Source: a virus
UHGV virus genome: UHGV-0097687
Reading direction: 5' to 3' (one strand)
DNA: 26,529 nt
The notes beneath the pieces were generated by a model that was not told the origin of the DNA, did not search any database, and was given only the letters and a program-made list of their open reading frames with translations. The translations under genes were made by a program, and so were the position numbers. Positions 1,809-22,220 of this stretch are shown piece by piece (positions within the stretch are counted from its first letter, which is position 1; every line of letters begins with the position of its first letter).

Positions 1809-1827
1809 ATTTTATAACCCCAATACG

Positions 1828-1851
1828 GGCGCCAGAAATGGCGCCTTTTTT
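1828..1851 (+). terminator. Intrinsic terminator after J
   Basis: GGCGCCA-GAAA-TGGCGCC hairpin followed by TTTTTT. Confidence 0.7.
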
Positions 1852-1875
1852 ATTGCAGAAAAGCGAGAGGTAATT

Positions 1876-2475
1876 ATGCGTAAATTATGTGCAGCCATTT
1901 TGTCCGCAGCCATCTGTCTGTCCGTATCCGGTGCGCCTGCATGGGCGTCTGAACATCAGTCCACACTGAGCGCGGGGTATCTTCATGCCCGTACGAACGC
2001 TCCCGGCAGCGATAATCTGAACGGGATTAACGTGAAATACCGTTATGAGTTTACGGACGCGCTGGGGCTGATTACGTCCTTCAGTTATGCCAATGCTGAG
2101 GATGAGCAAAAAACGCACTACAGCGATACCCGCTGGCATGAAGATTCCGTGCGTAACCGCTGGTTCAGCATGATGGCGGGGCCGTCTGTACGCGTGAATG
2201 AATGGTTCAGCACGTATGCGATGGCGGGCGTGGCTTACAGCCGTGTGTCGACTTTCTCCGGGGATTATCTCCGCGTAACTGATAACAAGGGGAAAACGGA
2301 CGATGTGCTGACCGGAAGTGATGACGGTCGCTACAGCGACACGTCTCTGGCGTGGGGGGCTGGCGTGCAGTTTAACCCGACCGAATCCGTGGCCATTGAT
2401 ATTGCTTATGAAGGTTCCGGCAGTGGCGACTGGCGCACTGACGGTTTCATCGTTGGTGTCGGTTATAAATTCTGA
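1876..2475 (+). CDS. lom: Lom-like outer membrane beta-barrel protein (Ail/Lom/OmpX family), lysogenic-conversion moron
   Basis: 199 aa with signal peptide (MRKLCAAILSAAICLSVSGAPAWA), ends in aromatic residue (..GYKF); position after J as in lambda; GAGAGG RBS; flanked by terminators. Confidence 0.82.
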   Translation: MRKLCAAILSAAICLSVSGAPAWASEHQSTLSAGYLHARTNAPGSDNLNGINVKYRYEFTDALGLITSFSYANAEDEQKTHYSDTRWHEDSVRNRWFSMMAGPSVRVNEWFSTYAMAGVAYSRVSTFSGDYLRVTDNKGKTDDVLTGSDDGRYSDTSLAWGAGVQFNPTESVAIDIAYEGSGSGDWRTDGFIVGVGYKF

Positions 2476-2501
2476 TTAACCAGGCAACACAGTGTTATGA
2501 C

Positions 2502-2528
2502 AGCCCGCCGGTTCAGGCGGGCTTTTTT
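2502..2528 (+). terminator. Intrinsic terminator after lom
   Basis: AGCCCGCC / GGCGGGCT stem followed by TTTTTT. Confidence 0.7.
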
Positions 2529-2539
2529 GTGGAGTGGAT

Positions 2540-5849: not shown

Positions 5850-7562
5850 CTAGGCCTGGGCTTCAGTTATAGTGGCAGCTTTTTCTAGATTCGATTTGAT
5901 GACAAGTTCATTTTTGTCTGCACTTATTTCTTCAAGTTTTTTCTGAAGAACCTCAACTTGTTTTTCACTTTCGATACCTTGCTTAGCCCGAATTTCGAGT
6001 AAAGATTTTGTCCTAAGTGCATTTTCTATTACATCTTCATCCATAAAACTCATGATATCCTCAACCAGATCCGGTACAAATCCCTCCGGCTGTAAATTTT
6101 TGCTTCTCAACTCTATAACCAAGTTGGCTGCAGTCTCTTTTGACATGGCTCCACTCGCGACAGAACCTTTCATATCTTTGTATACATTAGCGACTTTTGC
6201 TGCCACCTGTGTAGAAAGAATAACTTGTGCTCTAGCAACTACATCAAAAGTCGTAGGTAATTTCACTCCATTAGCAAACCCCTTATGAGACTTAAACCAT
6301 AATCTCTCAGTTATATAGTCTAAAGTGGCTGCGAATGGTATTGTTCTTTCTCCTTGAGTAGAAAAGTAATGTGATAGGGATTTGGTTATATTTTTACCCG
6401 TGATGAGTAGGGCTCCAGTTTGCTCTAACTTTATATTGCTTCTTCCTTTTCTTTTGTAATTTATCTTTGTGAAAATTTTTAAAGTATCAGCAATTTTATC
6501 CAATTCATAATCTGGGAATTCTCTTTTTAGTTTATCAAGTGTAGAGGTGCTTTCAATATTATACTCCGGCTTATCGTAATAATCAGTGTTAGCATCAAGA
6601 GAAATTTTCATTTTTCCTAGTTTTTCAAAAAACTCTATTTTTTTTATTGTGATGTCTGATTTTGTAGAACAGCTTTGTAGTAGATTGATCATTCCAGTCT
6701 TAGATGGGTCTGGATGTTGATTACGCTCGAAAATCTTTTCTGCTGCATAAAAGTAACTTTCAACTTCGCTTTGTGTTTCTTCAAAGTACTTTAATTCTAT
6801 TTTTGATTTATTTCCTGAGCGGTCTCGTAACCCCTTGACTAATAATAGAAATTCTTCAAACATACGATAATGAATATCGCCATTTAATCCTACAGCATCA
6901 AATAATAATTCCGTATCAAGAACTATTTGAAAATCATTCCTCCATGGCTCAGCATTCACTAAGTCTGAGTTATAACAGATCCCACCGTAAAGAATTAGTC
7001 CTTCTTCAACCTTGTTTAACTTATCGGTGAACAGAGGGTCTTTTGAATTCTGAATGATGAACTGACTGATAACTACGGAGTTCTCACTCTGCTTTCTGTC
7101 ATGAATAAAATATGAATAAAAATCTGATAATAGCTCTTCAATCTGCTCTAGATTAAGTTCTTCTTTACTAAAGGACTTAACGAATTGAATGAGCAAGTTT
7201 TTTATATAGTCTTGTTCTTCCTTTACTTGCTCGTAACTTGCTTTTAGATTATTGTTTCTATCAAATTTTTCAGTAACATAATATTTGCCATTTTTAAATT
7301 CCAACAAACCTATTTTCTTGAGTCTGTTTTTTAGACATGATTTCACTACAGCTTCAGGTATATCAAATCCATAGTCAGAATTTAGTTCCTGAGAGCACTT
7401 AGTTACGTCGAACTCCCATAACTGATGTATGACTATAGTTGAACATAGGAACTGAGCTAAAACATCGTATATATCTTTCTTATTTTCATGTAATTGACGA
7501 AAAAGAGCTGCAGATGCCAATAAACGTTGATCTTCCATAATTCCTTTCTTGAGAATACTCAT
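5850..7562 (-). CDS. Hypothetical 570-aa protein, AT-rich cargo gene (candidate defence or exclusion protein, function unknown)
   Basis: Long uninterrupted ORF in roughly 33% GC DNA; GGAGGGG RBS 4 nt before ATG; C-terminal coiled-coil-like region; no Walker, nuclease or RT motif recognised by eye. Confidence 0.7.
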   Translation of the reverse strand: MSILKKGIMEDQRLLASAALFRQLHENKKDIYDVLAQFLCSTIVIHQLWEFDVTKCSQELNSDYGFDIPEAVVKSCLKNRLKKIGLLEFKNGKYYVTEKFDRNNNLKASYEQVKEEQDYIKNLLIQFVKSFSKEELNLEQIEELLSDFYSYFIHDRKQSENSVVISQFIIQNSKDPLFTDKLNKVEEGLILYGGICYNSDLVNAEPWRNDFQIVLDTELLFDAVGLNGDIHYRMFEEFLLLVKGLRDRSGNKSKIELKYFEETQSEVESYFYAAEKIFERNQHPDPSKTGMINLLQSCSTKSDITIKKIEFFEKLGKMKISLDANTDYYDKPEYNIESTSTLDKLKREFPDYELDKIADTLKIFTKINYKRKGRSNIKLEQTGALLITGKNITKSLSHYFSTQGERTIPFAATLDYITERLWFKSHKGFANGVKLPTTFDVVARAQVILSTQVAAKVANVYKDMKGSVASGAMSKETAANLVIELRSKNLQPEGFVPDLVEDIMSFMDEDVIENALRTKSLLEIRAKQGIESEKQVEVLQKKLEEISADKNELVIKSNLEKAATITEAQA

Positions 7563-7634
7563 ACAGCCCCTCCGATCACATTTTTGATGGTTTGATACAG
7601 AAGCAACGTGTACTTATTTAATATTTAACAATAA

Positions 7635-7663
7635 ATCTACAATATTATTTCAAAGTGTGTCAA
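7635..7663 (-). promoter_or_regulatory. Candidate sigma70 promoter for the 570-aa gene
   Basis: Minus strand TTGACA (7663-7658), 18-nt spacer, TAGATT; about 70 nt upstream of the start codon. Confidence 0.3.
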
Positions 7664-8300
7664 TTTTTTTTAACTATCTAAAGCTAGATTCCCTTGGTAT
7701 ACAAATATTGTACAACAAAACAAAAATTTTCAGAGTTTTATTCTTTTATTTGCCGTAGGGGCTCGGGTTTGTTCGAGGTTTCCATCTGAAGCCCTCAAAC
7801 TGATGACCGACTTCCCTTGATTAAGGATAGCGTTGCATTGACCCGTTGAACTCACAGCTCATAACAGACATTCACTACGGTTATGGCAGAAAGGTATGCA
7901 TGCTGGGGATGGGGAAGTTGTGAAAGAAAAGAAGGCTGCTGCGTCGTTTGACATCACGTCTATCTTTTTATTGGTTATGCAGGTCGTAGTGGGACAAAAC
8001 TGAGACACATAAGGCCTCACAATGGCTTGCAAGGCTTTACATGTTTTGATGTAGTGGGACGTGTGAGCGCAGTGTTGATGGGGTAATGCATTGAATTAGA
8101 AGCGAATTCTTATAATTCGTAATGCTAAGATCGTAGGGGCGTCCCCATTTTCGGTACTACCTAAATCAATGAGTTACCTAACTTTTAGTTATGACATAAA
8201 GATATATATGCTAAGTAAGATATAGAGAAGCTGGTAAAGCAATTAAAGCTGTTGCTACGTGTGTGGCGGCTGATGTATAGCCATTTATGCAGATGAAACG

Positions 8301-8326
8301 AAAAAAAGCCCACATCTGTGGGCTTT
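8301..8326 (-). terminator. Intrinsic terminator (strong on minus strand, weak on plus)
   Basis: Minus strand GCCCACA-GA-TGTGGGC followed by TTTTTTT; lies about 230 nt downstream of the methyltransferase stop. Confidence 0.65.
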
Positions 8327-8443
8327 CAAGTCACTCGGGAGCCGCGGCTCCTTTGCGTATCCTTTTTTGTCTCCTCACCGTCTGGTCGGTGTCCTGCTGA
8401 GACTGCTAACTTCCTGTTTTTCTTGGTGTTGTCCTTACACCGT

Positions 8444-8457
8444 CCAATCATGATTGG
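8444..8457. repeat. Perfect 14-bp palindrome CCAATCATGATTGG abutting the att-like core
   Basis: Read directly from sequence. Confidence 0.6.
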
Positions 8458-8482
8458 CTGGCGGGAGTTGAACCCGAGTCCG
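8457..8482 (-). other. tmRNA (ssrA) 3'-end-like segment, candidate phage attachment-site core or remnant
   Basis: Minus strand CGGACTCGGGTTCAACTCCCGCCAGC matches the T-arm/acceptor region of E. coli ssrA as remembered (..CGGACGCGGGTTCAACTCCCGCCAGCTCCACCA), 25 of 26; similarity ends before the CCA end. Confidence 0.5.
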
Positions 8483-8554
8483 TATTTTTATAATTAGCTG
8501 AAATAAAACGATTAATACTAACCATTTTATTCTGCGGATCTTTTGCGGCTCCTT

Positions 8555-9454
8555 TTATGTCTGGATGTGGTCGTCAACACATCCTCTTTTAAATACAGGC
8601 GCTTTTACCTTAGTTGGATCATCTGTTTTAAAGATTTTCAATCGTTCACTGAAGAACATTACCTCAGATCCTTTGTACCGATCTTGAGCACTGTAGTTTA
8701 TTCCATATACTAATGATGATGTCTTATACATAGCTTGGATCTCAGGAGTGTTATCGTAAGAAACAATCCAAGGTGTTTTAATATTATTCTGTACGACTTT
8801 TGCAACCCTAACATGATCATCATGATCATAATGGTTGATATATAAACCTTTACCTTTTATGTAATAAGGTGGATCCAAATATGTTAATGAGTTTTGTGGC
8901 AATTGAGTAACTATTTTTTTAATGAAATCAATTGCATCCATGTTATATAAATCTATTCTGTGACGATTTTCTGATATTTTATGGATTCGAGAAATCAAAT
9001 CACTCTTATTATAGCGAGCGTCAAGCTTCCATTTCCCTTCTTGATTTTTACCGCCAATTACTCCACCTTTTAATATTCCAGAACGATTTGTTCTATTGAG
9101 AAAAAAGGTTGAGAAACCAATTGTTAAAAGATCATGGTCTTTAGGATTATTAATTATATCTTTCTGCCTAAACCATTCATCCATTGTAACTTCTGTTCTT
9201 TCAATTAAAGAACATAATTGATCTGCATGATTTAATACACTGTGCCAAAAAGCATAAACAGAAATATTAATATCATTAAGGATGATTTTTTCAGCTGCAT
9301 TTAGATGTAACAGTTTCAATGCTAAACCAGCACCCCCAGCATATGGTTCGGCATAATGTATAGGCGAAAGATTATTTTCTTCAATAATCCGAAGCATGAA
9401 ATTTGCAAGCTTGCCTTTACCGCCAGGATAGCGAAGTGGGGTGTTAAAACGCAT
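8555..9454 (-). CDS. Dam-family (alpha-class) N6-adenine DNA methyltransferase
   Basis: N-terminal PLRYPGGKGKL and EPYAGGAG (SAM-binding motifs comparable to E. coli Dam) and catalytic YLDPPYY; AGAGG RBS; AT-rich. Confidence 0.85.
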   Translation of the reverse strand: MRFNTPLRYPGGKGKLANFMLRIIEENNLSPIHYAEPYAGGAGLALKLLHLNAAEKIILNDINISVYAFWHSVLNHADQLCSLIERTEVTMDEWFRQKDIINNPKDHDLLTIGFSTFFLNRTNRSGILKGGVIGGKNQEGKWKLDARYNKSDLISRIHKISENRHRIDLYNMDAIDFIKKIVTQLPQNSLTYLDPPYYIKGKGLYINHYDHDDHVRVAKVVQNNIKTPWIVSYDNTPEIQAMYKTSSLVYGINYSAQDRYKGSEVMFFSERLKIFKTDDPTKVKAPVFKRGCVDDHIQT

Positions 9455-9488
9455 ATGATACCTCTAAATGTCAGATCTAAAGTATATC

Positions 9489-9528
9489 AAAAAAAGGGCT
9501 TTATGGCCATCACATAAAACCCTTTTTT
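9489..9528. repeat. Long near-perfect inverted repeat (about 16-bp stem, 7-nt loop) between the ATPase and methyltransferase genes
   Basis: AAAAAAGGGCTTTATG-GCCATCA-CATAAAACCCTTTTTT; on the minus-strand RNA the single mismatch is a G-U pair. Confidence 0.6.
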
Positions 9529-9534
9529 AATCAA

Positions 9535-11268
9535 TTAGTTATCTGACAGATATGATGAGATGGTAGCAGAATCGACACCATGTCCACTTATCATAATAAC
9601 TTTAAGACTCTTTATTAGTTCATTCTTGAAGCTATCCGATTGAACAGGATTTTTCTCGACCCAATATCGATATGGGTTATCTTTAACTCTTCCTTTGACT
9701 TGGGCCTGAAATTGAGTCGTATGTGCAAAATCTTTAAACAGTTTTCTAACTCTCCCTCCATGGTTTTTGTTAACTTTTTTATAATTATCTATAAGGATTT
9801 TTAAATCAATCGGAGCGTTACCAATCTTTAGCGTTGCAATTATGTCTTTAGCTGTTTTCATAAAAACAGCTTTTGTAAATTTATTTTTATTTTCCCAATA
9901 TGCATCATCAGGTGGTAAATTATATAAAAACTCAAAAATCATTTGGTCTGGAGGTAAGGTGCTTGGAAGCAAACATAAGTTTTTTTCTTTTTTGGCTTTT
10001 TTTGCATTAGCACTGTTGTCGTGAACAACATCACCGTCTAAGACGATCAAGCTTTTAGCTGTAAATTCTGGTATTTTTCTTGCCATTAAGTCAAGCATGG
10101 CAGAGCAGCTAATATTTATATTTCCTAATGGATTTAATATTTTATTTATTTTTCGATCTGTTATCAATTGTTTGAAAAAGTCGAAACCTTCTTTGTCTTC
10201 AAAATATACATTTGCCTTTGGAAGACAAATGTCATCATTAATTTTTACAGTTTCAACATGTAAATCAGCGTGGATATCTGTCCATGAAAGATTATTCTTT
10301 GTTTTAATATCTCCATATGTGTCTGTAAGATATATTGTTTTAAAGCTATCACTATCTTGTTTTGAACGATTATAGATATCCTCTATTATTAATGGAGAGT
10401 GCGAGGTCATGATTATTTGCAGATCGTATTGTTTTGCTGCTTTAGTTAGAATATTAATTAGCTCTAACTGTGCCGCAGGGAAAAGACCTGCATCGGCTTC
10501 ATCAATTAACAATATTCCGCCATGATAATCAGAATAAGTTTCCTTCAATCTTTTAAATGAAAAAATTGCCTGGATTAATTGTCCAACATTATCTTCACCA
10601 ACAGATACTGATTGGTGATCATAATTGTCACCATGGACAACCATTGAATCGATAGTACCTTTTGTTGCTGTTACTGAGCTTCCATTGTTTTTTAGTAAGA
10701 GTTGGTTACTCATCATTCTGATTTCATCAGAATTTTCATTGATGTACTGAACATCCCGTGTTGAGTAATCAGTCCTTAATGTAATAGGAAGAAGTCGTGC
10801 TAAGCTTAAAAAAATAACAGGATGAGTAACGTTTCTACTTTGGTTTTTTTCCGGTATTGAATCATTTCCCCTGACTACAGGCCTAGATTTATCTCTGTCA
10901 CTGTAGCTGTATAAACCTAATGTTAGTTTTTCAAGATGTTTGTTCGATGCACCATCATAGACACTAATTTTGACGTCCATTGAACCAGGAACATCAAATT
11001 GTTCTGAAAGCCTAAAATGTTCGCTGAAAGCTGACTTGAAGCTGCCATTTGTTAATGTTTTATATTGTGTTAAATCAGTCTCAGGGTTTTTGGTAAAGTC
11101 CTTTGTAAAGCTAAATATTTGGGCGATAATGCCAAGAATTGTGGATTTAGATGTGCCATTTTTACCACAAATAACAGTTAGGCGAGAACCAAACTCGATG
11201 TTTATATTTTTCAGTCCGCGAAACTTCACAACATTTATATTTTTTAGTTTGGTAATTTGATTTGCCAT
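9535..11268 (-). CDS. OLD-family ATP-dependent nuclease-like protein (N-terminal ABC-type ATPase, C-terminal Toprim-like domain)
   Basis: Start set at MANQITKLKNINVVKFRGL..; Walker A GKNGTSKST, Walker B/D-loop ILLIDEADAGL, H-loop MTSHSP; C-terminal ..FEDKEGFD.. and ..LIVLDGD.. resemble Toprim E and DxD motifs; 577 aa, similar in size to P2 Old and GajA. Confidence 0.72.
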   Translation of the reverse strand: MANQITKLKNINVVKFRGLKNINIEFGSRLTVICGKNGTSKSTILGIIAQIFSFTKDFTKNPETDLTQYKTLTNGSFKSAFSEHFRLSEQFDVPGSMDVKISVYDGASNKHLEKLTLGLYSYSDRDKSRPVVRGNDSIPEKNQSRNVTHPVIFLSLARLLPITLRTDYSTRDVQYINENSDEIRMMSNQLLLKNNGSSVTATKGTIDSMVVHGDNYDHQSVSVGEDNVGQLIQAIFSFKRLKETYSDYHGGILLIDEADAGLFPAAQLELINILTKAAKQYDLQIIMTSHSPLIIEDIYNRSKQDSDSFKTIYLTDTYGDIKTKNNLSWTDIHADLHVETVKINDDICLPKANVYFEDKEGFDFFKQLITDRKINKILNPLGNINISCSAMLDLMARKIPEFTAKSLIVLDGDVVHDNSANAKKAKKEKNLCLLPSTLPPDQMIFEFLYNLPPDDAYWENKNKFTKAVFMKTAKDIIATLKIGNAPIDLKILIDNYKKVNKNHGGRVRKLFKDFAHTTQFQAQVKGRVKDNPYRYWVEKNPVQSDSFKNELIKSLKVIMISGHGVDSATISSYLSDN

Positions 11269-11290
11269 GTTTCTATCTTGCTCCGTAAAA

Positions 11291-11309
11291 TGGCCACAAA
11301 TTGTGGCCA
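11291..11309. promoter_or_regulatory. Perfect palindrome TGGCCACAA-A-TTGTGGCCA between int stop and ATPase start (int terminator or operator)
   Basis: 9-bp perfect arms; on minus strand followed by ATTTTAC. Confidence 0.35.
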
Positions 11310-11326
11310 ATAGTTTCATGCTTGGA

Positions 11327-12493
11327 TTATATTGTTATCTTCTTCAAGCTTGTTTGTCCATCATATTCCTTCAGATATGAGCCATAGTGCCTGAAAAGCA
11401 TCTCCGGCCCTTTATGCCCCATTTGAGCTGCAAGCCAAAACAGGTTTGCTCCCCGGCTGATATGGCGGGTGGCGAATGTATGCCTGGTTTGATATGGATT
11501 TCTGTAACGAATACCTGCTTTTCGCAATGTTGGCACCCATGCTTTTTTCCTGATTGCATCAGCACTTGCCCAGGGCTTATTGGTCTTTGGATCTTCAAAG
11601 ACAGTAGCATCCTTCATGAATGTAAATGGCTTCTGATTTATCAGCGCCAACATTGCATCTTCTGTCAGTTCAACTTTACGAGTACCGGCTTTTGTCTTTG
11701 TTCCTTTGATAACACCGACAACACTTGCGCTCTGGACATGGGCAGTTTTTCCAACAAAGTCGATATCACGCCATCGAAGGGCACATAATTCAGAACTACG
11801 CAGGCCTGTATGTATAGCGAACCGGAACAGATTCTCCCATTGTTTGTTTCCGGCTGCTGTTAGTAATGCATCAACTTCTGCTGGTGATAGCGGATCAACC
11901 ACGTAGCTGCTTTCTGCTTCTGACTTATCACTTTGGTAGCGCGAAGCAGTTACCAACGATACGGGGTTAATTTGAAGTACCCCATCGGTTACGGCTTCAT
12001 CAAGTGCTGACCGCAGGAAAGATAACTGGTTGCGAATTGTTTTTAAGGTCGTTTTCTGGCTTTGAATCCACGCTTTCAGGATTGCTGGTGTTAATTCACT
12101 TGCAGGGCAAATGTGGAGTGAGGCTAACGCACTACGGCATTTTTTATAACCACCAATCGTAGAGGGTGAAAGTTTTCTCGTTTCGCAGATTTCAAGGTAT
12201 TCGTCCAGGTACATTTTTACCGTTTTGCCTGCAGCAGCATTACCAAAAATTTTCAAACGAGCAGAACGGGGAAAATATTCCGCATAAATGAATGTTCCCC
12301 TTTCGATCTTATTATGAATTTCGCCGAGTGTGCGCTCGGCGTATTTAATGTTCTTTGGTGTTACTTCCAGATTGGAAAGAGGCTCACGACATTTAACTCC
12401 TTTGTAGGTGAAAGTTATATTGATCGTTTCGCCCTGGCGGTGTTTCCTGATTGTTACGCCGCGCGGTAGTTTGAGCAGTTTTGTCTGGCCCAT
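11327..12493 (-). CDS. int: Tyrosine recombinase (phage integrase) with N-terminal arm-binding domain
   Basis: 388 aa; C-terminal catalytic motifs ..HTGLRSSEL.. and ..RHTFATRHISRGANLFWLAAQMGHKGPEMLFRHYGSYL (R..H..R..Y); start overlaps xis. Confidence 0.9.
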   Translation of the reverse strand: MGQTKLLKLPRGVTIRKHRQGETINITFTYKGVKCREPLSNLEVTPKNIKYAERTLGEIHNKIERGTFIYAEYFPRSARLKIFGNAAAGKTVKMYLDEYLEICETRKLSPSTIGGYKKCRSALASLHICPASELTPAILKAWIQSQKTTLKTIRNQLSFLRSALDEAVTDGVLQINPVSLVTASRYQSDKSEAESSYVVDPLSPAEVDALLTAAGNKQWENLFRFAIHTGLRSSELCALRWRDIDFVGKTAHVQSASVVGVIKGTKTKAGTRKVELTEDAMLALINQKPFTFMKDATVFEDPKTNKPWASADAIRKKAWVPTLRKAGIRYRNPYQTRHTFATRHISRGANLFWLAAQMGHKGPEMLFRHYGSYLKEYDGQTSLKKITI

Positions 12494-13948: not shown

Positions 13949-14773
13949 TCAGGCGGTGAAAGTACCAATAAAGGTTTCTACTTTGCTGTCTTTGAATTTC
14001 TCAACAAGCAGATCACGAAATTCGTTAGCCATTTCTTCCTGGACTGCTTCCAACTGAATAATGCGCAGAACCAGTACAGGACGATCGCCAGTGATAATGC
14101 TGAGGCGTAATTTAAACGGACGTTCTTTCAGACCTTCAAACGGAACGCATTTAAATTCAAATGCCACTGGCATAATATCTTTGGTCTTCGCTTCGACAGA
14201 CTCCATCAGGGAGCGTTTTCCGCTGAAGTCATTATCTTCAAAATCAGCGGTCTGGTTTGCTTCAATCGTGATTTTACGGACAGCCGCAGCCGCTTTTGTT
14301 GCCTGAATAGCGTCACCATTAGCATCAAAGCCTACAAGGTAGTCGGCCCAGTCTTCAATCCATTCTGCCAGTGACTTCTGGGAGTTACGCTCGCCGTTAA
14401 CAGACAACAGAGCAGAGAACGGTGCTGTCTTTTTCAGTTTGAGAGTGGCGGTGTTATCTGCGTGACCTGGTTCATCAATAGTACCCAGGTTAAGCACACT
14501 GACGGCACGCATATTATCGGCATCAATAAAGCAGCGGGTGCCTTCATTTGCAAGATCTTTAGAATAACGGGTAAAGTCATCGATGCTGGCAGTGGAAAGC
14601 GCACCACGGAAACGGAAGCGATTTAAATTAAATTTTTCCAGATCATGAATGCGGAAGTTCTCAGGCAATGCCACAGCATCGGCACCAATCTTACTGATAA
14701 TTTCATTAACACCCTGAGCAGAAATAAGGGCATGGATTTGATTAATTGCGGTTGCGTCTAAGTTCTGAGACAT
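13949..14773 (-). CDS. Hypothetical protein, YfdQ-like (DUF2303-type)
   Basis: 274 aa; same length and position as remembered E. coli prophage YfdQ; assignment from memory. Confidence 0.55.
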
Positions 14774-14838
14774 AATAAGTCCTCACTATATAAAGATATT
14801 CAGTGATGAGATAAATAATCAGTTTATTAAAAACGATA

Positions 14839-15201
14839 TTAACGACCTGCTGCGCGGAGTTTTCCGTCAGGTTCACCGGCAAGAGTCAGTAATTGTCCCT
14901 GGTCTTCCTGCAGAATAGTCAGGCGACCACCGCGATTGACATACATCGGCGTTTCGGTGGTGTCTTCTTCGGAAATTTTCCCGCGGTTAGTCGGGCGAAC
15001 ATATGAGAGTTTGTGTTTGATTTTCACTCGGTTCTCATCAAACGGTTCGATTTCCAGATTGAGTGAGACCTTACCTTTGGTTTTCGTGTTCATCACACCG
15101 GAAGCGACTTCACTGAGAACTGCGCCGATTTTGGTTTCAAATACGCCGCCGTCCAGCTCCCCGATAAATGCCTGCACATCAGTACTGCGTTCGCTAGCCA
15201 T
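14839..15201 (-). CDS. Hypothetical protein, YfdP-like; first gene of leftward early operon
   Basis: Start placed at ATG 15201 with GAGGAG RBS (120 aa, MASERSTDVQAF..); upstream 60 codons of the tracked ORF lack RBS. Confidence 0.55.
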   Translation of the reverse strand: MASERSTDVQAFIGELDGGVFETKIGAVLSEVASGVMNTKTKGKVSLNLEIEPFDENRVKIKHKLSYVRPTNRGKISEEDTTETPMYVNRGGRLTILQEDQGQLLTLAGEPDGKLRAAGR

Positions 15202-15245
15202 TTTGCTGCTCCTCATCATATCGACCCTGCAAGGTCGGTTAGTTT

Positions 15246-15342
15246 CTCCACAAAACAGAGAAGAACACCTGCGGTGGCAGCCGCCCGGATGGATTGGGTT
15301 ATGAGCCCGTCGTCCGGTGATGCTCTTCTCTGTTTTGTAAAA
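15246..15342 (-). promoter_or_regulatory. Structured leader of early-left transcript (15-bp perfect inverted repeat enclosing a GC-rich roughly 60-nt insert)
   Basis: ACAAAACAGAGAAGA (15250-15264) pairs with TCTTCTCTGTTTTGT (15324-15338); lies between operator region and first early-left gene. Confidence 0.4.
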
Positions 15343-15543
15343 AGAGCGGTACCAGCCGGAAGCAAGTGTACAAACTGGTACCGCCAAAGCAGTGGCTGTT
15401 GTGGTGACCGGTGCTGATCTCCGGCTTGCGGTTATTTCAGACTCTCACGGGCGTTTAATTGCCCCGCCGAACAGCTCTTTTCCGCAATAGCTGCAATGTC
15501 TTTCGCGCATCAGCCTGCGCATTCACCACAACTCTAAAAACAA

Positions 15544-15596
15544 ATGTAGGATATCCAACATGTAGGTGTCAAGAGTTTATGTTGGTTATCCTACAT
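15544..15596. promoter_or_regulatory. Left operator region (OL) with two 18-bp repressor-type sites, presumed leftward early promoter
   Basis: ATGTAGGATATCCAACAT (15544-15561) and ATGTTGGTTATCCTACAT (15579-15596); same palindrome family recurs at OR. Confidence 0.6.
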
Positions 15597-15612
15597 AAAA
15601 AGATAGGCTCAT

Positions 15613-15638
15613 AAAAAAACCGGGGATACCCCGGTTTT
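15613..15638 (-). terminator. Bidirectional intrinsic terminator downstream of the repressor gene
   Basis: AAAAAAA-CCGGGG-ATA-CCCCGG-TTTT. Confidence 0.7.
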
Positions 15639-15658
15639 GCGATAGTAAGGAAGATGTG

Positions 15659-16303
15659 TCAAAAATCCATTATTACTTGTTTGACAAGACCAACTATTCT
15701 GCAGTTCTCACCGCATTCAATAGTTTTATAGTTAGGATTTAGTGGGACGAGATACCTGTTCGGCCAGTCCTCAACAAATTTTTTGAGTGTCGCTTCTTGC
15801 CCACCATTGATATGGGCAACAACGATTTTTCCGTTAATACACTCTGTATCAATAATATCTGGCTCTACGATAACGATAGAACCTTCTGGTATCGATGGTG
15901 AGCCGAGGGGATTGGTCATTGAATCACCACGGACCCGTAGTGCAAATGCCATTTCTGATACAAGGGCGGTAGTATAAACCCACTCTTCAGCATCTTCTTT
16001 CCTGACACCAGGCTCCGTCATTGTCCATGAACCCGCCTGAACCCACGAGATGAGGGGGACTTTTTTAACTGCGAATATTTCAGGTTTTAGATTTATCTTT
16101 GGTTCAGGCGAGCCTTTTCCGCTAACAAGCCACAGAGGATCGCATTTAAGTGCGTTGGCTAGGGCTTGAAGGTTGGCTCCATTTGGTTGGTAGTCGTCCT
16201 TTTCCCATCCAGTAACCGTGACACGGTTCACACCAGTCAAATCAGCCAGTGCTTGTTGTGTCAGGTTCAGTTCTTTTCGCCTTTGGCGAATACGATCACT
16301 CAT
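15659..16303 (-). CDS. cI: CI-type repressor (N-terminal HTH, C-terminal S24 LexA-like autopeptidase)
   Basis: HTH LNLTQQALADLTGVNRVTVTGWEK; Ala-Gly cleavage site (..VQAGSW..), catalytic Ser in ..GDSM.., Lys in ..LKKFV..; start uncertain among Met codons at 16312, 16309 and 16303 (possible leaderless mRNA). Confidence 0.85.
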   Translation of the reverse strand: MSDRIRQRRKELNLTQQALADLTGVNRVTVTGWEKDDYQPNGANLQALANALKCDPLWLVSGKGSPEPKINLKPEIFAVKKVPLISWVQAGSWTMTEPGVRKEDAEEWVYTTALVSEMAFALRVRGDSMTNPLGSPSIPEGSIVIVEPDIIDTECINGKIVVAHINGGQEATLKKFVEDWPNRYLVPLNPNYKTIECGENCRIVGLVKQVIMDF

Positions 16304-16310
16304 GTTCATC

Positions 16311-16374
16311 ATGTAGGCAATCCTACCACATGCCAATGTAGGATTCTTGACATTGGCATGTTGGATATCCTACA
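16311..16374. promoter_or_regulatory. Right operator region (OR) with three repressor-type sites between repressor and cro-like genes
   Basis: ATGTAGGCAATCCTACCACAT (16311-16331), ATGTAGGATTCTTGACAT (16335-16352), ATGTTGGATATCCTACAT (16357-16374); the third is the reverse complement of the OL site. Confidence 0.6.
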
Positions 16375-16407
16375 TTCCTGCTTGACGTAATTTAACGGGA
16401 GACAGAA

Positions 16408-16605
16408 ATGCGGAAATCCGACGTGATTAATTATTTCGGCGGAGTTTGTAAAACCGCCGAAGCCCTAGGTATTAAGCATCCGTCTGTTTCAGAGTGGCCT
16501 GAGATTATTCCTGAAGGCCGAGCGTACCAGTTAGAAAAAATTACTAACGGGAAACTGAAAGTTGACGTGTCTTTATATCAAAAGACTAACAGTGCTGCGG
16601 CATAA
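16408..16605 (+). CDS. Cro-like small regulator (DicC-like)
   Basis: 65 aa; GGGAGA RBS; divergent from repressor; ..YFGG..AEALGI..VSEW..PEGRA.. resembles remembered DicC pattern. Confidence 0.7.
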   Translation: MRKSDVINYFGGVCKTAEALGIKHPSVSEWPEIIPEGRAYQLEKITNGKLKVDVSLYQKTNSAAA

Positions 16606-16632
16606 AAACACCACAGAAATGAGGAATTAACC

Positions 16633-17217
16633 GTGGGTAAAGAACCTGAATGGAAAGTTGATAAACAACCAGCATGGCTGGTGGCAGCAATACGAAGAAC
16701 GATTGCTGATTTACCTCATGGCTATGAGGAAGCAGCAGAAATTCTTGGTTTGTATAAATCTGATGATATCACCCCAGCAAAAGATCAATTGCATAACAGA
16801 CTGCGTAGCGGTGGGGATCAAATTTTTCCACTTGAGTGGGCCATGGTTTTACAGGATGCCAGTGGTACCAGGCATGTAACAGATGCAATAGCCCGTCGTA
16901 GTAATGGGGTGTTTGTGCCGCTGGTGGTCATTGATGACATTGACAATGGTGACATTAATCAGCGGCTGATGGAGTCAATAGAATGGATTGGCAAGCATTC
17001 CCAGTACTTACGCAAGGCAACTGCTGATGGAGTTATTGACCAGGCTGAGCGTGAGCAAATCGAAGAGAACAGCTACCAAGTAATGGCGAAGTGGCAGGAG
17101 CATTTAACACTGTTATTTCGTGTTTTTTGTGCGCCGGAAAAGAGTAACGCCCGCGAGTGTGCAGCTCCGGGCGTCGTGGCGTCGATTGCTTCTGGTTGTG
17201 GAGAAACTAACGCATGA
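16633..17217 (+). CDS. CII-like early regulatory protein (YdaT/CP76-like)
   Basis: GTG start with GAGGAA RBS; 194 aa; position after cro; family assignment from memory, moderate. Confidence 0.5.
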
Positions 17218-17392
17218 ACAGTTTAACAACACACTACCGTCGCTCGCAACTGATTGCGCTTCCTGTACCGGGTGGAAAAGCGAAGGTGGAGTATTGCTAT
17301 GCAGTGAATGTACCAGGTGACAGGGAAATTGTAACCCACAGCTTTGCAGAGTGGGCTGTGGGTGATTTCAACCGGCAGAAGGAGACAGTCCT

Positions 17393-17605
17393 TTGCGACA
17401 AGTTAACCGCTGGTTCAAAGATCACTACGGAGTGCCCGTCAGAGTCATTCGTTGGGAGCCGGAAACACAACGGGTTATCTACCTCCGTGAAGGCTATGAA
17501 CATGAATGCTTCAGTCCGCTCGAACAGTTTCGTCGTAAATTCAGGGAAATAGAGGTCGGTCATGAGCCTGTTAATGACATCCCAGCCCATTGTGATAAAT
17601 CGTGA
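17393..17605 (+). CDS. Hypothetical protein (TTG start)
   Basis: GGAGACAG RBS 8 nt upstream of TTG; 70 aa; competes with overlapping ORF 17214-17552 in another frame. Confidence 0.4.
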
Positions 17606-18554
17606 TCTTGCATGCCGTATTGGTCTGAATGAGGCAATTGTGTTGCAGCAGCTTCATTACTGGCTGAATGAAACGAATTCAGGCACTGAGCATGGCGGAA
17701 TTCGCTGGGTTTATAACACGACAGAACAGTGGCTGGAGCAGTTTCCGTTCTGGTCAGAGTCCACTCTGAAACGCACATTTGCAAGCCTGAAATCACTTGG
17801 GGTTTTGCGTCGCGAGCAACTCAATAAATCGAAGCGTGACATGACCAACTTCTACACGATCAACTATGAAAGTGAGCTTTTAGAAGAGGTCAAAGTGAAC
17901 GAATCCATCAGGTCAAAATGCACTTCTCCATCGGGTCAAAGTGACCTGATGGATGGGCGCAAAATGACACGATCCATTGGTTCAAAACGACACGCTGTCA
18001 TCGGGTCAAAATGGCCCAATGATCTTACAGAGAATACAACAGAGATTACTACAGAGAATAAAACCTCTTCTCGTCCGGACGCTTCGCAACCGGACACGCA
18101 AACGGCTGAACAGGAGTTTTTAACTCGCCATCCTGATGCGGTTGTATTCAGCCCTAAAAAGCGCCAGTGGGGAACGCAGGATGATTTGACCTGCGCACAG
18201 TGGCTCTGGAAAAAAATCATCGCCCTGTACGAGCAGGCCGCCGAATGTGACGGCGAGGTGGTTCGTCCCAAAGAACCGAACTGGACAGCATGGGCAAACG
18301 AAATTCGCCTGATGTGTGTGCAGGATGGTCGTACTCACAAACAAATCTGCGAGATGTACAGCCGCGTCAGCCGCGATCCGTTCTGGTGCCGTAACGTGCT
18401 CAGCCCGTCGAAGTTGCGGGAAAAATGGGATGAGCTTTCCCTGCGCTTATCGCCGTCCGTCAGCACGCACACAGAAAAACGTGAAGACCCGTACTTCAAA
18501 GCCAGTTACGACAACGTGGACTACAGCCAGATCCCGGCAGGATTCAGGGGGTGA
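17562..18554 (+). CDS. Replication initiation protein (O-like replisome organiser) containing the origin iterons
   Basis: GAGG RBS; N-terminal ..[29 protein letters not shown].. winged-helix-like; iterons embedded in the coding sequence as in lambda O. Confidence 0.75.
   Translation: MSLLMTSQPIVINRDLACRIGLNEAIVLQQLHYWLNETNSGTEHGGIRWVYNTTEQWLEQFPFWSESTLKRTFASLKSLGVLRREQLNKSKRDMTNFYTINYESELLEEVKVNESIRSKCTSPSGQSDLMDGRKMTRSIGSKRHAVIGSKWPNDLTENTTEITTENKTSSRPDASQPDTQTAEQEFLTRHPDAVVFSPKKRQWGTQDDLTCAQWLWKKIIALYEQAAECDGEVVRPKEPNWTAWANEIRLMCVQDGRTHKQICEMYSRVSRDPFWCRNVLSPSKLREKWDELSLRLSPSVSTHTEKREDPYFKASYDNVDYSQIPAGFRG
17885..18065. repeat. Candidate origin of replication: five iterons (consensus about CATCGGGTCAAAATG) plus adjacent A-rich ACAGAGA(A/T)TA repeats
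   Basis: Iteron copies at about 17887, 17906, 17929, 17975 and 17999; A-rich repeated segment 18020-18065. Confidence 0.65.
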
Positions 18555-18648
18555 TCATGAGTCTGTTAAATGACGTTCAGAAATTCATTGAAGCCCATCC
18601 GGGCTGTACTTCCGGAGACATTGCGGATGCTTTTTACGTGGGGGCTTA

Positions 18649-19302
18649 ATGAGTAATAAATATTGCCAGGCGCTGGTAGAACTGCGGAACAAACCAGCCC
18701 ATGAACTGAAGGAAGTGGGCGATCAGTGGCGCACGCCGGACAACATTTTCTGGGGAATTAACACCTTGTTTGGTCCGTTTGTTCTGGATCTGTTCACTGA
18801 CGGTGATAACGCCAAATGTGCCGCGTATTACACGGCGGAAGACAACGCGCTGGCGCATGACTGGTCAGAACGTCTTGCGGAGCTTAAAGGTGCTGCCTTT
18901 GGTAATCCCCCATACAGCCGCGCCAGTCAGCATGAGGGGCAATACATCACCGGCATGCGTTACATCATGAAACATGCCAGTGCCATGCGTGATAAGGGCG
19001 GGCGCTATGTTTTCCTGATCAAAGCTGCCACCAGCGAAGTGTGGTGGCCGGAAGATGCGGACCATATTGCTTTTATTCGCGGGCGTATTGGTTTTGAACT
19101 GCCTGCCTGGTTTATCCCGAAGGATGAGAAGCAGGTGCCGACAGGCGCTTTCTTCGCTGGTGCTATTGCTGTTTTCGACAAGACCTGGAAGGGACCGGCA
19201 ATCAGCTACATCGGGCGCGATGAACTTGAGGCATGTGGTGAGGCGTTTCTGGCGCAGGTTCGCCAGCAGGCAGAAAAACTTGTCAGGGAGATGGCGGCAT
19301 GA
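18649..19302 (+). CDS. Phage Dam-type N6-adenine DNA methyltransferase (small NPPY class)
   Basis: 217 aa; catalytic ..AFGNPPYS..; typical location in lambdoid early-right region. Confidence 0.8.
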   Translation: MSNKYCQALVELRNKPAHELKEVGDQWRTPDNIFWGINTLFGPFVLDLFTDGDNAKCAAYYTAEDNALAHDWSERLAELKGAAFGNPPYSRASQHEGQYITGMRYIMKHASAMRDKGGRYVFLIKAATSEVWWPEDADHIAFIRGRIGFELPAWFIPKDEKQVPTGAFFAGAIAVFDKTWKGPAISYIGRDELEACGEAFLAQVRQQAEKLVREMAA

Positions 19303-19625
19303 CGACGTTAACTCAATGCCAGCAGCAGGTGCTGGATATGCTGATTTCTTACCAGCAAGAGCGTGGCTTTCCGCCAACCAATCAGGAGGTGGCAACCATG
19401 CTGGGATACCGTTCGGTGAATGCAGCGGTGGAGCATCTTCGCGCACTGGAGAAAAAAGGCGTCATCACGATAAAGCGTGGCGTGGCCCGGGGGATAACGC
19501 TTCATACCGCAGTGAAGGACGACGACAGCGAAGCGGTCGGTATCATCCGCGCACTGCTTGCCGGTGAGGAGAACGCCAGGCTGCGTGCAGCCCACTGGTT
19601 ACATGAGAGGGGCCTGAAAGTATGA
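19299..19625 (+). CDS. LexA-like N-terminal DNA-binding domain protein
   Basis: 108 aa; ..QQVLDMLISYQQERGFPPTNQEVATMLGYRSVNAAVEHLRALEKKGVI.. resembles LexA winged helix; ATGA coupling. Confidence 0.6.
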   Translation: MTTLTQCQQQVLDMLISYQQERGFPPTNQEVATMLGYRSVNAAVEHLRALEKKGVITIKRGVARGITLHTAVKDDDSEAVGIIRALLAGEENARLRAAHWLHERGLKV

Positions 19626-20011
19626 AGTTGATCCTGCCTTTCCCGCCCAGTGTGAACACGTACTGGCGACACCCCAACAAAGGGGCATTTGCTGGTAAGA
19701 GCCTGATAAGCGAGGCGGGGCGAAAATTTCAGAGCGCGGCGTGCGCAGCAATAGTTGAGCAGTTACGTCGTCTGCCGAAACCAACGTCGGCACCTGCTTC
19801 AGTGGAGATCGTGTTGTTTCCTCCGGATAACCGGATCCGCGATCTGGACAACTATAACAAGGCGCTGTTTGACGCCCTGACCCACGCGGGTGTGTGGGAA
19901 GACGACAGACAGGTGAAAAGAATGCTGGTGGAGTGGGGACCGGTTATCCCGAAAGGGAAGGTCGAGATCACTATCAGTAAGTATGAGAAACCGGCGGGTG
20001 CAGCCGCCTGA
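19622..20011 (+). CDS. rusA: Holliday junction resolvase RusA
   Basis: 129 aa; ..PPSVNTYWRH.., ..RDLDNYNKALFDALTHAGVWEDDRQV.. match RusA signature. Confidence 0.85.
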   Translation: MKLILPFPPSVNTYWRHPNKGAFAGKSLISEAGRKFQSAACAAIVEQLRRLPKPTSAPASVEIVLFPPDNRIRDLDNYNKALFDALTHAGVWEDDRQVKRMLVEWGPVIPKGKVEITISKYEKPAGAAA

Positions 20012-20030
20012 TTAAGAGGAGAAACGAAGT

Positions 20031-20840
20031 ATGAATAATCTGATGGTCATTGATGGTATTGAAGTTCGTCGTGATGCTTATGGGCGTTACAGCCTGAACG
20101 ATCTGCATCGCGCAGCAGTAGCATCTGGTGCAAATGCCAGAACCAAGGAGCCAGGAAAGTTTCTTTCCAGCCAACAAACTGTTGAGCTTGTTCATGAATT
20201 GACCAACACCCAGAATTTGGGTGTTGACCCGGTGAGTGTGATTCATGGGGGAAATGAACGGGGAACGTATGTCTGCAAGGAACTGGTGTATGCCTATGCA
20301 ATGTGGATCAGCCCGTCATTCCATCTGAAGGTGATCCGTACTTTCGACATGGTAACCAGCGCACCGGAAAAATTATCCGGACAGGCTGCTGACAAGATGC
20401 AGGCTGGTGTGATTCTGCTGGACTTTATGCGCCGGGAATTAAACCTGTCTAACTCTTCAGTGCTTGGTGCCTGTCAGAAACTCCAGGAGGCTGTTGGCTT
20501 ACCGAATCTGGCACCGCGCTATGCCATTGATGCTCCTGCTGACGCGCCTGATGGCTCAAGTCGTCCTACGCTGTCGCTGAGTGCACTGCTGAAACAGTAT
20601 GGTATCCGCCTTACGGCTAATCAGGCATATCACCAGATGGCGAAGCTGGGGATCGTTGAACAACGCGAACGATACAGCCGTACCGCGATTAACAACATCA
20701 AAAAATTCTGGTCGCTGACAGCGAAAGGTTGCATGTTCGGCAAGAACATCACCAGTCCCGCAAATCCGCGCGAGACGCAGCCGCATTTCTTCGAATCCCG
20801 ATTCCCTGAGCTGTTAAAGCTGCTCGATACCGTTCATTGA
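20031..20840 (+). CDS. KilA-N domain-containing protein
   Basis: Strong RBS GAGGAGAAACGAAGTATG; N-terminal ..MVIDGIEVRRDAYGRYSLNDLHRAA.. KilA-N-like. Confidence 0.65.
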   Translation: MNNLMVIDGIEVRRDAYGRYSLNDLHRAAVASGANARTKEPGKFLSSQQTVELVHELTNTQNLGVDPVSVIHGGNERGTYVCKELVYAYAMWISPSFHLKVIRTFDMVTSAPEKLSGQAADKMQAGVILLDFMRRELNLSNSSVLGACQKLQEAVGLPNLAPRYAIDAPADAPDGSSRPTLSLSALLKQYGIRLTANQAYHQMAKLGIVEQRERYSRTAINNIKKFWSLTAKGCMFGKNITSPANPRETQPHFFESRFPELLKLLDTVH

Positions 20841-20841
20841 G

Positions 20842-21837
20842 GTGACCGTGAGAGCACTACTGACCCCTGAAATTGCCCCGCGTATGGGGATCGTATTGTT
20901 CAGGCCAGGTTCAGAGCTGATGCCCCTGTTTATGCAGGGGCGTGTCCTGCTGGAGCCTGAGCCGGAACGTTATTCATCTTTCGCCAGTGGTGCCGTTCCG
21001 GCGGCATCACAACCGCTGGCGGATGATCCTGCCGTTCGGGCCGTGTTCCGCAATGAGGAAGTGATCCGTCGTGCTGGTGGCGTGGAATGTCTTGAAAGCT
21101 GGTTACTTCGTGAAAAAGGCTGCCAGTGGCCTCATTCCGACTGGCACAGCGAGAACATGACAACAATGCGACACGCGCCGGGCGCAATCCGTCTGTGCTG
21201 GCACTGCGATAACCAGCTGCGCGATCAGTTCACGGAACGGCTGGAATCAATGGCAACGGATAACTGTGCCCGCTGGGTGTTGTCTGTTGTGCGTCGGGAT
21301 CTCGGTTTTGATGACAGTCACGTTGTGACAATGCCGGAACTGTGCTGGTGGCTGATTCGTAATGACTTGGCGGATGCCTTACCGGAAAGTGCAGCCCGTA
21401 AGGCACTGAGATTACCGAAGCCTGTTGTGCCGTCTGTCACCCGGGAAAGTGACCTTGTGCCTTCGGTTCCTGCCACCAGCATCATCCAGGATAAGGCGAA
21501 AAAGGTGCTGGCGCTGAAAGTGGATCCGGAGTCGCCGGAGTCTTTTATGTTACGCCCAAAACGTCGCCGCTGGGTTAATGAAAAGTACACACGCTGGGTT
21601 AAGACACAGCCGTGTGCATGTTGTGGAAAGCCTGCTGATGATCCCCACCACCTGATAGGCCACGGTCAGGGGGGAATGGGTACAAAAGCGCATGACCTCT
21701 TTGTGTTGCCTTTGTGCAGAAAGCATCACGACGAGCTGCATGCGGATACCGTGGCATTTGAAGAGAAGTATGGCTCCCAGCTGGAGCTGATATTTCGTTT
21801 TATCGATCGTGCGCTGGCAATTGGCGTGCTGGCCTGA
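20842..21837 (+). CDS. DUF968-type prophage protein with C-terminal Cys/His cluster
   Basis: 331 aa; ..[28 protein letters not shown].. metal-binding-like; start (GTG 20842 or downstream ATG) uncertain. Confidence 0.6.
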
Positions 21838-21854
21838 TTTTGTGGAGAACGTTG

Positions 21855-22220
21855 ATGCGTGATATTCAAATGGTTCTTGAACGTTGGGGGGCATGGGTGG
21901 CAAATAATCACGAGGATGTCACCTGGTCGTCTATTGCTGCAGGATTTAAAGGACTAATCCCTTCAAAAGTAAAATCCCGCCCGCAATGTTGTGACGATGA
22001 TGCGATGATCATTTGTGGGTGCATGGCTCGCCTGAAAAAGAACAACAGCGATTTGCACGATTTATTAGTGGATTATTATGTAGGTGGTATGACGTTTATG
22101 GCGCTTGCCCGTAAACATGGGCGTTCTGATTGCTGGGTTGGGCGTTTATTGCAAAAGGCTGAAGGTGTAGTTGATGGCATGTTAATGATGTTAGAAATTG
22201 AGCTAGAGATGGATCGTTAG
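21855..22220 (+). CDS. Q: Late-gene antiterminator Q
   Basis: [42 protein letters not shown].. matches remembered Q of Stx-type lambdoid phages; Cys-rich zinc-binding-like motif. Confidence 0.78.

Follow-up and report, generated by a model that had tools for sequence, protein, structure and literature searches.

A lambda O-type initiator gene with in-gene iterons and a DnaT-type C-terminal tail, followed by a yfdN remnant in place of a loader gene, in virus genome UHGV-0097687

The virus genome UHGV-0097687 was analysed over a stretch of 26,529 nucleotides (hereafter the window), which appears to be a lambdoid phage with its genes in vegetative order and resembles the lambda-like phages of E. 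coli. Its early region contains an O-like replication initiator gene that harbors a presumed replication origin and is followed by a 30-codon open reading frame (ORF) and a methyltransferase gene. The features of this locus, with domain borders taken from an AlphaFold2 (AF2) model and its predicted local distance difference test scores (pLDDT), are:

17562-18554, plus strand: O-like replication initiator gene, 330 aa (phrog_391; lambda O homology)
17583-17891, plus strand: N-terminal winged-helix domain, aa 8-110, the presumed iteron-binding domain (block-mean pLDDT 81-96)
17888-18026: six 23-bp iterons with a consensus of about CATCGGGTCAAAATGAC, starting at 17888, 17911, 17934, 17957, 17980 and 18004
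17904-18071, plus strand: disordered interdomain linker, aa 115-170 (pLDDT <50)
18026-18064: A-rich 12-bp repeat ACAGAGAATACA, three copies directly 3' of the iterons, the presumed DNA-unwinding element
18099-18449, plus strand: lambda-O-type helical C-domain, aa 180-296 (pLDDT >90; lambda O homology)
18480-18551, plus strand: DnaT-type tail, aa 307-330, ending REDPYFKASYDNVDYSQIPAGFRG
18557-18649, plus strand: 30-codon ORF, a yfdN remnant (alignment with mEp460_4F5, phrog matches, annotation pipeline)
18649-19302, plus strand: Dam-type N6-adenine methyltransferase gene, yfdM-like, 217 aa (PF05869, E 1e-45)

The product of the O-like gene belongs to phrog_391, 'replication initiation O-like' (E 1e-101), and aligns with lambda O over 148 aa at 33% identity (BLASTP, E 1e-26); its sequence gave no match in Pfam, NCBIfam or the PDB. 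The AF2 model was built from 99 diverse homologues. In this model the N-domain shows the topology H-H-E-E-H-H-E-E, and its best Foldseek matches are weak (E 0.01-0.1), comprising the N-domains of plasmid RepA (4pql, 5kbj and 4pt7) and winged helix-turn-helix regulators. Its profile weakly matches MarR/AdcR and the DnaD N-domain, and profile searches of the PDB with two alignments returned weak winged-helix matches for the N-domain and nothing for the C-domain. The N-domain is not of the Phage_rep_O type (PF04492), with no Pfam match at E<=0.01 where lambda O scores 6e-36, and PF04492 is found in only 12 of 99 proteins having the same C-domain. The C-domain is homologous to that of lambda O, the half that interacts with P, and carries the conserved motifs WAN-IRLM and FW-N-LSP-KLR-KW. 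Its family comprises 2694 cluster representatives (50% identity) at E<=1e-3, matches no Pfam model, and is joined N-terminally to HTH_36, Phage_rep_O, DUF1376, DnaD_N, GntR or MarR domains.

The original prediction left room for a DnaT or loader domain fused into the C-terminal half of the initiator. No globular domain of this kind was found; only the last ~22 residues are of DnaT type. The C-terminal half has no Pfam, NCBIfam or PDB sequence match, and the C-domain shows no AAA+ or P similarity. By profile comparison (hhalign) it aligns with DnaT at a probability of only 0.1-0.2%, and by fold its best Foldseek match in the PDB has an E of 2.1 (C-domain model with pLDDT 88 and a predicted template-modelling score of 0.74). 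The C-domain is thus not DnaT, DnaC or P by profile or fold. The three-helix-bundle domain with which DnaT binds single-stranded DNA (ssDNA; PF17948) is likewise missing from the Pfam results, and no DnaT chain appears among the PDB sequence or Foldseek matches listed for the protein.

The middle of the gene carries the repeats. Tandem Repeats Finder (TRF) detected an array of 23-bp period with 5.4 copies at 17888-18013, and a separate repeat search agrees (families D1, D2 and D4). Five iterons had been predicted; their location inside the O gene holds, and the count rises to six units, two of them degenerate. The other four share the exact core GGTCAAARTG, which has no further exact match on either strand of the window, where about 0.1 matches would be expected by chance from simple arithmetic. 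Unit 3 forms an imperfect palindrome, CATCGGGTCAAAGTGACCTGATG (inverted repeat I3). The adjoining A-rich block, which had also been predicted within the coding sequence, was recovered by TRF as 3.2 copies of the 12-bp unit at 18027-18064; it is 46% A and 67% A+T, compared with 50% A+T for the O gene. Iterons and A-rich block coincide with the DNA encoding the disordered linker (17904-18071), so that the module corresponds to a lambda O-type origin of tandem iterons plus an A/T-rich element, placed in the gene between the two domains. A scan for TTWTNCACA found no DnaA box close to the presumed origin. The only two matches lie far away and do not exceed the number expected by chance, and DnaA-box-assisted initiation is not supported.

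Sister alleles support the origin reading. The O proteins of SfII and CFS3292 are 98% identical to the window protein over the last 150 residues and about 24% identical over the first 110, and a different array, four copies of the 15-bp unit TCTGACCCGTCAAAA, occupies the matching position in the middle of their genes. The O protein of cdtI has a third N-domain and its gene a 21-bp array of 7.7 copies. The iteron sequence thus shifts along with the N-domain, which is what an initiator matched to its own binding sites would be expected to show. Together with the position of the repeats in interdomain-linker DNA and the homology of the C-domain, this bears out the predicted analogy to lambda ori, in which binding of the iterons and firing of the origin would follow the lambda pattern. 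As an origin-in-O module, the arrangement is ordinary.

The C-terminal tail is where the protein resembles a host primosomal protein. The window O ends in ...YSQIPAGFRG and E. coli DnaT in ...DSQIPPGFRG; eight of the last nine residues are identical, and both motifs lie at the extreme C-terminus. Across 27 DnaT orthologues I173, P174, G176, F177, R178 and G179 are invariant. When 13 O-like C-termini were aligned with the DnaT alignment by hhalign, the match reached a probability of 96.5% (E 7.6e-10) and was limited to the last 22 columns, joining O aa 307-330 to DnaT 160-179. The window protein thus has the DnaT ending ...D-x-x-IPxGFRG-COOH, which is strictly conserved among these O-like C-termini. 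In the AF2 model, aa 300-330 are of lower confidence and have no predicted secondary structure. Representatives of the C-domain family differ in their tails, which include [IV]PxGFRG (the DnaT type), ..D[FW]DNTDWxxG.. (the lambda type), ..HWNSxEAWENTL and others. In cdtI the C-domain is divergent (33% identity) and the tail identical. Many phage records (cdtI, Stx1 and Stx2 Shiga toxin (Stx) phages, PhiR40 and PhiR55) match the window only from 18479 onward, through dam, the lexA-like gene and rusA, so that a mosaic boundary falls on the first codon of the tail. Both observations indicate that the tail behaves as an exchangeable module.

The gene order 3' of O is equally distinctive. Pfam scans covered the larger ORFs of the window, from the integrase to the lysis genes, and ORFs <90 aa inside 14500-22000; among these no P, DnaC/IstB or DnaB family match was found. 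In lambda-type loci P (PF06992) lies directly 3' of O, and here the yfdN remnant and dam occupy that place. Neither P nor a DnaC/IstB AAA+ loader (PF01695) is present in the scanned early-region ORFs or fused to O, and none was found in the relatives mEp460, SfII and cdtI. The original prediction had noted a methyltransferase in place of a P- or DnaC-like loader, and both parts of this claim stand, the next full gene encoding the 217-aa Dam-type enzyme. The same loader-less order of O, yfdN, dam, lexA-like, rusA, KilA-N, DUF968 and Q is found in the phage records mEp460_4F5, SfII and cdtI. Since these are phage genome records, prophage decay is ruled out as the cause of the missing loader.

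A survey of the gene downstream of O-like initiators, drawn from GTDB species genomes, contigs encoding individual representatives and lambda itself, related the tail class to the loader (P0199 gave no downstream gene, its contig being too short):

Non-DnaT tails, 19 loci: P homologue directly 3' in 13, DnaC-like gene in 0, no recognisable loader in 6
DnaT-type tails, about 17 loci: P homologue in 0, DnaC-like AAA+ gene directly 3' in 3 (L167, L182 and L185), no recognisable loader in about 14

The 13 P-bearing loci are L178-181, L183, L184, L186, L188, lambda, P0171, P0173, P0177 and P0185, with P confirmed by PF06992 where checked. Where DnaT-tailed loci have no loader, they carry either yfdN, dam and rusA or cargo genes together with DUF977 or DUF1627. 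Two IMG/VR scans with protein queries brought little further diversity, as all relatives recovered were near-identical. A pattern scan of viral contigs for ...IPPGFRG followed by a stop codon yielded 23 ORFs, none followed by P and two followed by a DnaC-like gene. Seventeen of the 23 belong to a phage family of 270-272-aa proteins with true DnaT homology (E about 2e-38). This family (L208-L234, on IMG/VR contigs) is common, ends in ...EPDSEIPPGFRG and is followed by ORFs of 114 or 154 aa; it has the look of a phage initiator based on a genuine DnaT C-domain. As a separate observation, one O-like lineage with the tail ...VNHISEPDTEIPPGFRG (L174, L176 and L177, from GTDB) carries a SIR2-like, QueH or RelA/SpoT-domain protein in the slot past O and DUF977, which suggests a hotspot for defence or accessory genes. 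A DnaT tail on a lambda-O C-domain, apparently mutually exclusive with P, is a variant that we did not find described in the literature.

Between O and dam lies the 30-codon ORF, whose predicted tight coupling, coordinates and translation proved exact. Its ATG stands 2 nt past the O stop codon, and the TAA that ends it overlaps the start codon of dam (TAATG). Between O and dam, mEp460_4F5 has a gene of 489 bp, and in the alignment 396 bp of it are missing from the window. What is left are codons 1-26 and the last four (YVGA), in frame, of a 162-aa PerC-like yfdN product, joined near 18634/18635 with 1 nt (T) of microhomology. In agreement with this, phrog_23071 and phrog_1324 match only residues 1-26, at the N-terminus of transcriptional-activator profiles of 109-172 positions. 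Full-length YfdN is a PerC-family regulator of ~160 aa with its PerC domain (PF06069, in the C-terminal half) at aa 98-149; the 30-mer has no Pfam match. The end-to-end alignment of the 30-mer with both ends of yfdN rules out an independent small-protein family. A 51-nt probe of the junction, with flanks too short to seed on intact yfdN, was found in 116 of 5426 complete E. coli genomes. The junction also occurs in phage cdtI and beside at least four different O N-terminal alleles, its copies carrying few substitutions, including A versus D at the last residue. Because the junction is identical, shows only a single nucleotide of microhomology and adjoins four or more different O alleles, recurrent deletion is unlikely, and the distribution points to one old deletion that was spread among prophages by recombination.

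The original prediction had weighed a remnant against a micro-protein, and the alignment decides for the remnant. A case for a functional micro-protein, or for an ORF kept to couple the translation of dam, could be made from the in-frame deletion, from the retained Shine-Dalgarno sequence, ATG and TAATG overlap, and from the persistence of the remnant allele in 116 genomes, beside at least four O alleles and in phage cdtI. An in-frame outcome, however, has a 1-in-3 chance, the 26 first and four last codons of a 162-aa protein leave out the PerC domain, and full-length yfdN is by a rough estimate from sampled rows ~10x commoner beside dam than the remnant. RefSeq annotation by the Prokaryotic Genome Annotation Pipeline (PGAP) calls the remnant an incomplete pseudogene, and its last residue differs (A or D) between alleles. 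We therefore consider a function of this kind highly improbable. The tight coupling is inherited from the ancestral overlaps of O, yfdN and dam, any role past passive coupling is unsupported, and the ORF is an ordinary pseudogene remnant with no part in replication. The start regions of O (17551-17574) and the remnant (18546-18569) are 79% identical over 24 nt (AGAGGTCGGTCATGAGCCTGTTAA and AGGGGGTGATCATGAGTCTGTTAA), and both proteins start with MSLL, the mEp460 annotation placing the O start four codons later (MTSQ). This likeness could be chance or a duplicated start region.

Taken together, the locus is probably a lambdoid origin-plus-initiator module whose DnaT-type tail recruits the host loading machinery without a loader of its own, next to a yfdN deletion remnant. 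From the anatomy, the homologies and the co-occurrence of tail class and downstream gene, we infer a course of events in which the winged-helix N-domain would bind the six 23-bp iterons inside its own gene and the neighbouring A-rich element would melt. The C-domain and tail would then bring in the helicase by way of whichever host protein the DnaT tail contacts. In the lineage of the window, a DnaT-type tail stands in place of the P-associated one, and P is absent. No phage loader would be needed because the tail would recruit the host machinery with which DnaT itself normally works. DnaC-DnaB is the likeliest target, given that the tail recurrently adjoins a DnaC-family gene: in the host, where dnaC comes after dnaT, in the Rac pair ydaU-ydaV, and at some O-like loci.

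Several points weigh against this interpretation. The proposed link from tail to partner is drawn from sequence and gene neighbourhood. Most DnaT-tailed initiators have no adjoining DnaC gene, the DnaC connection coming from a few lineages and the host operon, and six distant relatives with other tails also lack a recognisable loader. The counts of tail against loader are uncorrected for shared ancestry, and for ORFs <90 aa the protein-family scans cover 14500-22000. Given the boundary at 18479, the spread of the tail could in part reflect hitch-hiking with the yfdN-dam-rusA block that follows it. The accessible literature assigns no binding partner or function to the extreme C-terminus of DnaT, and holds nothing specific on a link between the DnaT tail and phage O proteins or on 'initiator-solo' modules. 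In the preprimosome structures of a 2026 cryo-EM study, the C-domain of DnaT docks on PriA; the authors propose the DnaT N-domain as a possible recruiter of DnaB/DnaC and state that the recruitment mechanism 'remains unknown' (PMC13377028).

These structures lend weight to a different partner. The DnaT-type tail could dock on PriA or PriA-PriB instead of DnaC-DnaB, so that a PriA-dependent primosome would assemble at the unwound origin with the initiator replacing DnaT as adaptor. DnaT meets PriA through a conserved hydrophobic surface of its C-domain, and the N-domain, not the C-terminal end, was proposed for DnaB/DnaC (PMC13377028); the many phages encoding 271-aa proteins with a real DnaT C-domain and tail (E 2e-38) would fit a hijack of the whole restart pathway. 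The window protein, however, has the tail alone, without the three-helix domain that forms the ssDNA filament, and the crystallised ssDNA-binding fragment DnaT84-153 does not include the tail (PMC4132743). As the recurring neighbour of tail-bearing proteins is moreover a DnaC-family gene, we regard docking on PriA as rather unlikely. A loader without similarity to known loaders could also be encoded elsewhere in the phage, the DnaT-like tail being incidental. Several early genes have no known function, the candidates being the 112-aa YmfM-like protein, the DUF968/HNH protein and the KilA-N protein, and non-homologous replacement of helicase loaders by viruses is, by its title, the subject of one paper (PMC11087808). 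The neighbours of DnaT-tailed initiators vary, however (YmfM-like, DUF4222, YdaT, DUF1627 and DUF977), and the tail itself is strictly conserved, which makes a hidden loader improbable. Recruitment of the host machinery by the tail remains our preferred reading. A broader and more tentative extension, which we hold to be possible but doubtful, is that the invariant C-terminal peptide ...IPxGFRG-COOH of DnaT is the handle of the restart preprimosome for DnaB-DnaC. It would have been captured by phage initiators of at least three unrelated architectures, namely lambda-O C-domain proteins, DUF1376 proteins such as Rac YdaU, and the 271-aa DnaT-domain proteins; loading of the host helicase would then require either no phage loader at all or a DnaC paralogue. 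The tail of the lambda-O family might then be an exchangeable loader address label, W/acidic for P and of DnaT type for DnaC.

In lambda, as in the window, the origin lies in the interdomain linker of the initiator gene, with annotated iterons and then an A+T-rich stretch mid-gene. The lambda iterons are tandem with internal dyad symmetry, a symmetry also seen in the imperfectly palindromic unit 3; the C-domains are homologous, and O follows cro and cII in the rightward operon. The window differs in its N-domain, which is not Phage_rep_O, in its iterons, six of 23 bp that are unrelated in sequence to the four 18-bp ones of lambda, and in lacking the P gene that follows lambda O. Its tail is DnaT-like (...SQIPAGFRG), whereas lambda O ends in ...DLTNTDWIYGVDL, as does representative P0239. 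Close relatives are yfdO-yfdN-yfdM of K-12 CPS-53/KpLE1 and the corresponding loci of SfII, SfIV and mEp460, with an O C-domain 97-98% identical, an identical tail and the order O, yfdN, dam, lexA-like, rusA. They differ from the window by a full-length yfdN (161-164 aa), where the window has the 396-bp deletion, and SfII additionally by its N-domain and iterons. In K-12-type strains, the O-like ORF beside yfdN consists of the C-terminal 122 aa only, with the same tail (L168 and L169).

E. coli DnaT shares with the window O its last ~20 residues, R-D-x-N-x-S-x-x-D-x-x-IPxGFRG-COOH, and differs in its N-domain and three-helix ssDNA-binding C-domain and in not being a sequence-specific origin binder. 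Rac YdaU (L207 620-2230, E. coli K-12) also has the DnaT tail, ending in ...VNTVSLPDSAIPPGFRG, a nearly exact copy of the DnaT ending VNTVSEPDSQIPPGFRG, and a comparable operon position after the cro-like ydaS and ydaT. It carries, however, a DUF1376 N-domain without the lambda-O C-domain, and the next gene encodes the DnaC paralogue YdaV, in the same order as host dnaT and dnaC, whereas the window phage has no such paralogue. The 'Eru' typing of Stx phages recognises HTH_36 proteins in place of O/P, and Eru-type phages share with the window a winged-helix protein by cI and the lack of P (PMC8951638). Several of them (e.g. Stx2a_WGPS2, the Eru6 reference) have the segment from the tail through dam and lexA-like to rusA in common with the window.

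The remaining genes of the window are arranged around this module as follows:

1-4603: tail tip J, lom and tail fibre genes
5850-11319: cargo block, between the tail-fibre genes and the integrase
11327-12493: integrase
After the integrase and before the cI-like repressor: DUF551, YfdR-like gene and yfdQ
15659-16336, minus strand: cI-like repressor
16408-16605: cro
16633-17217: cII/YmfL-like gene
17214-17552: YmfM-like ORF, 112 aa, directly upstream of O
19299-19625, plus strand: LexA-N-domain protein, 108 aa (PF01726, E 3e-19; TIGR00498, residues 1-91)
In order after the LexA-like gene: rusA, KilA-N and DUF968 (DUF968/HNH protein)
21840-22220: Q
After Q: a methyltransferase gene, then the lysis genes

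The 108-aa LexA-like protein consists of the DNA-binding domain alone, without the S24 peptidase domain, and would be a LexA look-alike resistant to RecA cleavage; its gene is kept 3' of dam in the O-yfdN-dam module. The dam gene itself (18649-19302) carries the name yfdM in K-12-type genomes and is one of three distinct DNA methyltransferase genes of the window, the others being of D12 class (8555-9454) and N6_N4 type (PF01555, 23367-24419). The cargo region comprises 5850-7562, a gap at 7563-8554 and a minus-strand part at 8555-11319; ~1 kb of the block is free of any ORF >=70 aa. Its D12-class methyltransferase matches the PD-Lambda-5_B defence model (E 2e-124), and the adjoining gene encodes a 594-aa AAA_15/OLD-like ATPase with PtuA-, GajA- and AriA-like matches. 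A 570-aa cargo protein has no Pfam or PADLOC match. By these matches, the cargo block is probably a PD-Lambda-5-type anti-phage system.

The loader-less O module is common: the junction region from the O 3' end through yfdN to dam is matched by about half of complete E. coli genomes, and the module is present in Shigella serotype-converting phages and several Stx phages. For annotation, the remnant is a caution that a micro-ORF can be a deletion scar even when it is tightly coupled and looks conserved, and the DnaT-like tail probably explains why automated pipelines (RAST and PHROG-derived annotation) label these initiators 'primosomal protein I'. The pattern of tail against loader suggests a testable answer to the question of how lambdoid phages without a loader, and possibly also DnaT, engage DnaB-DnaC.

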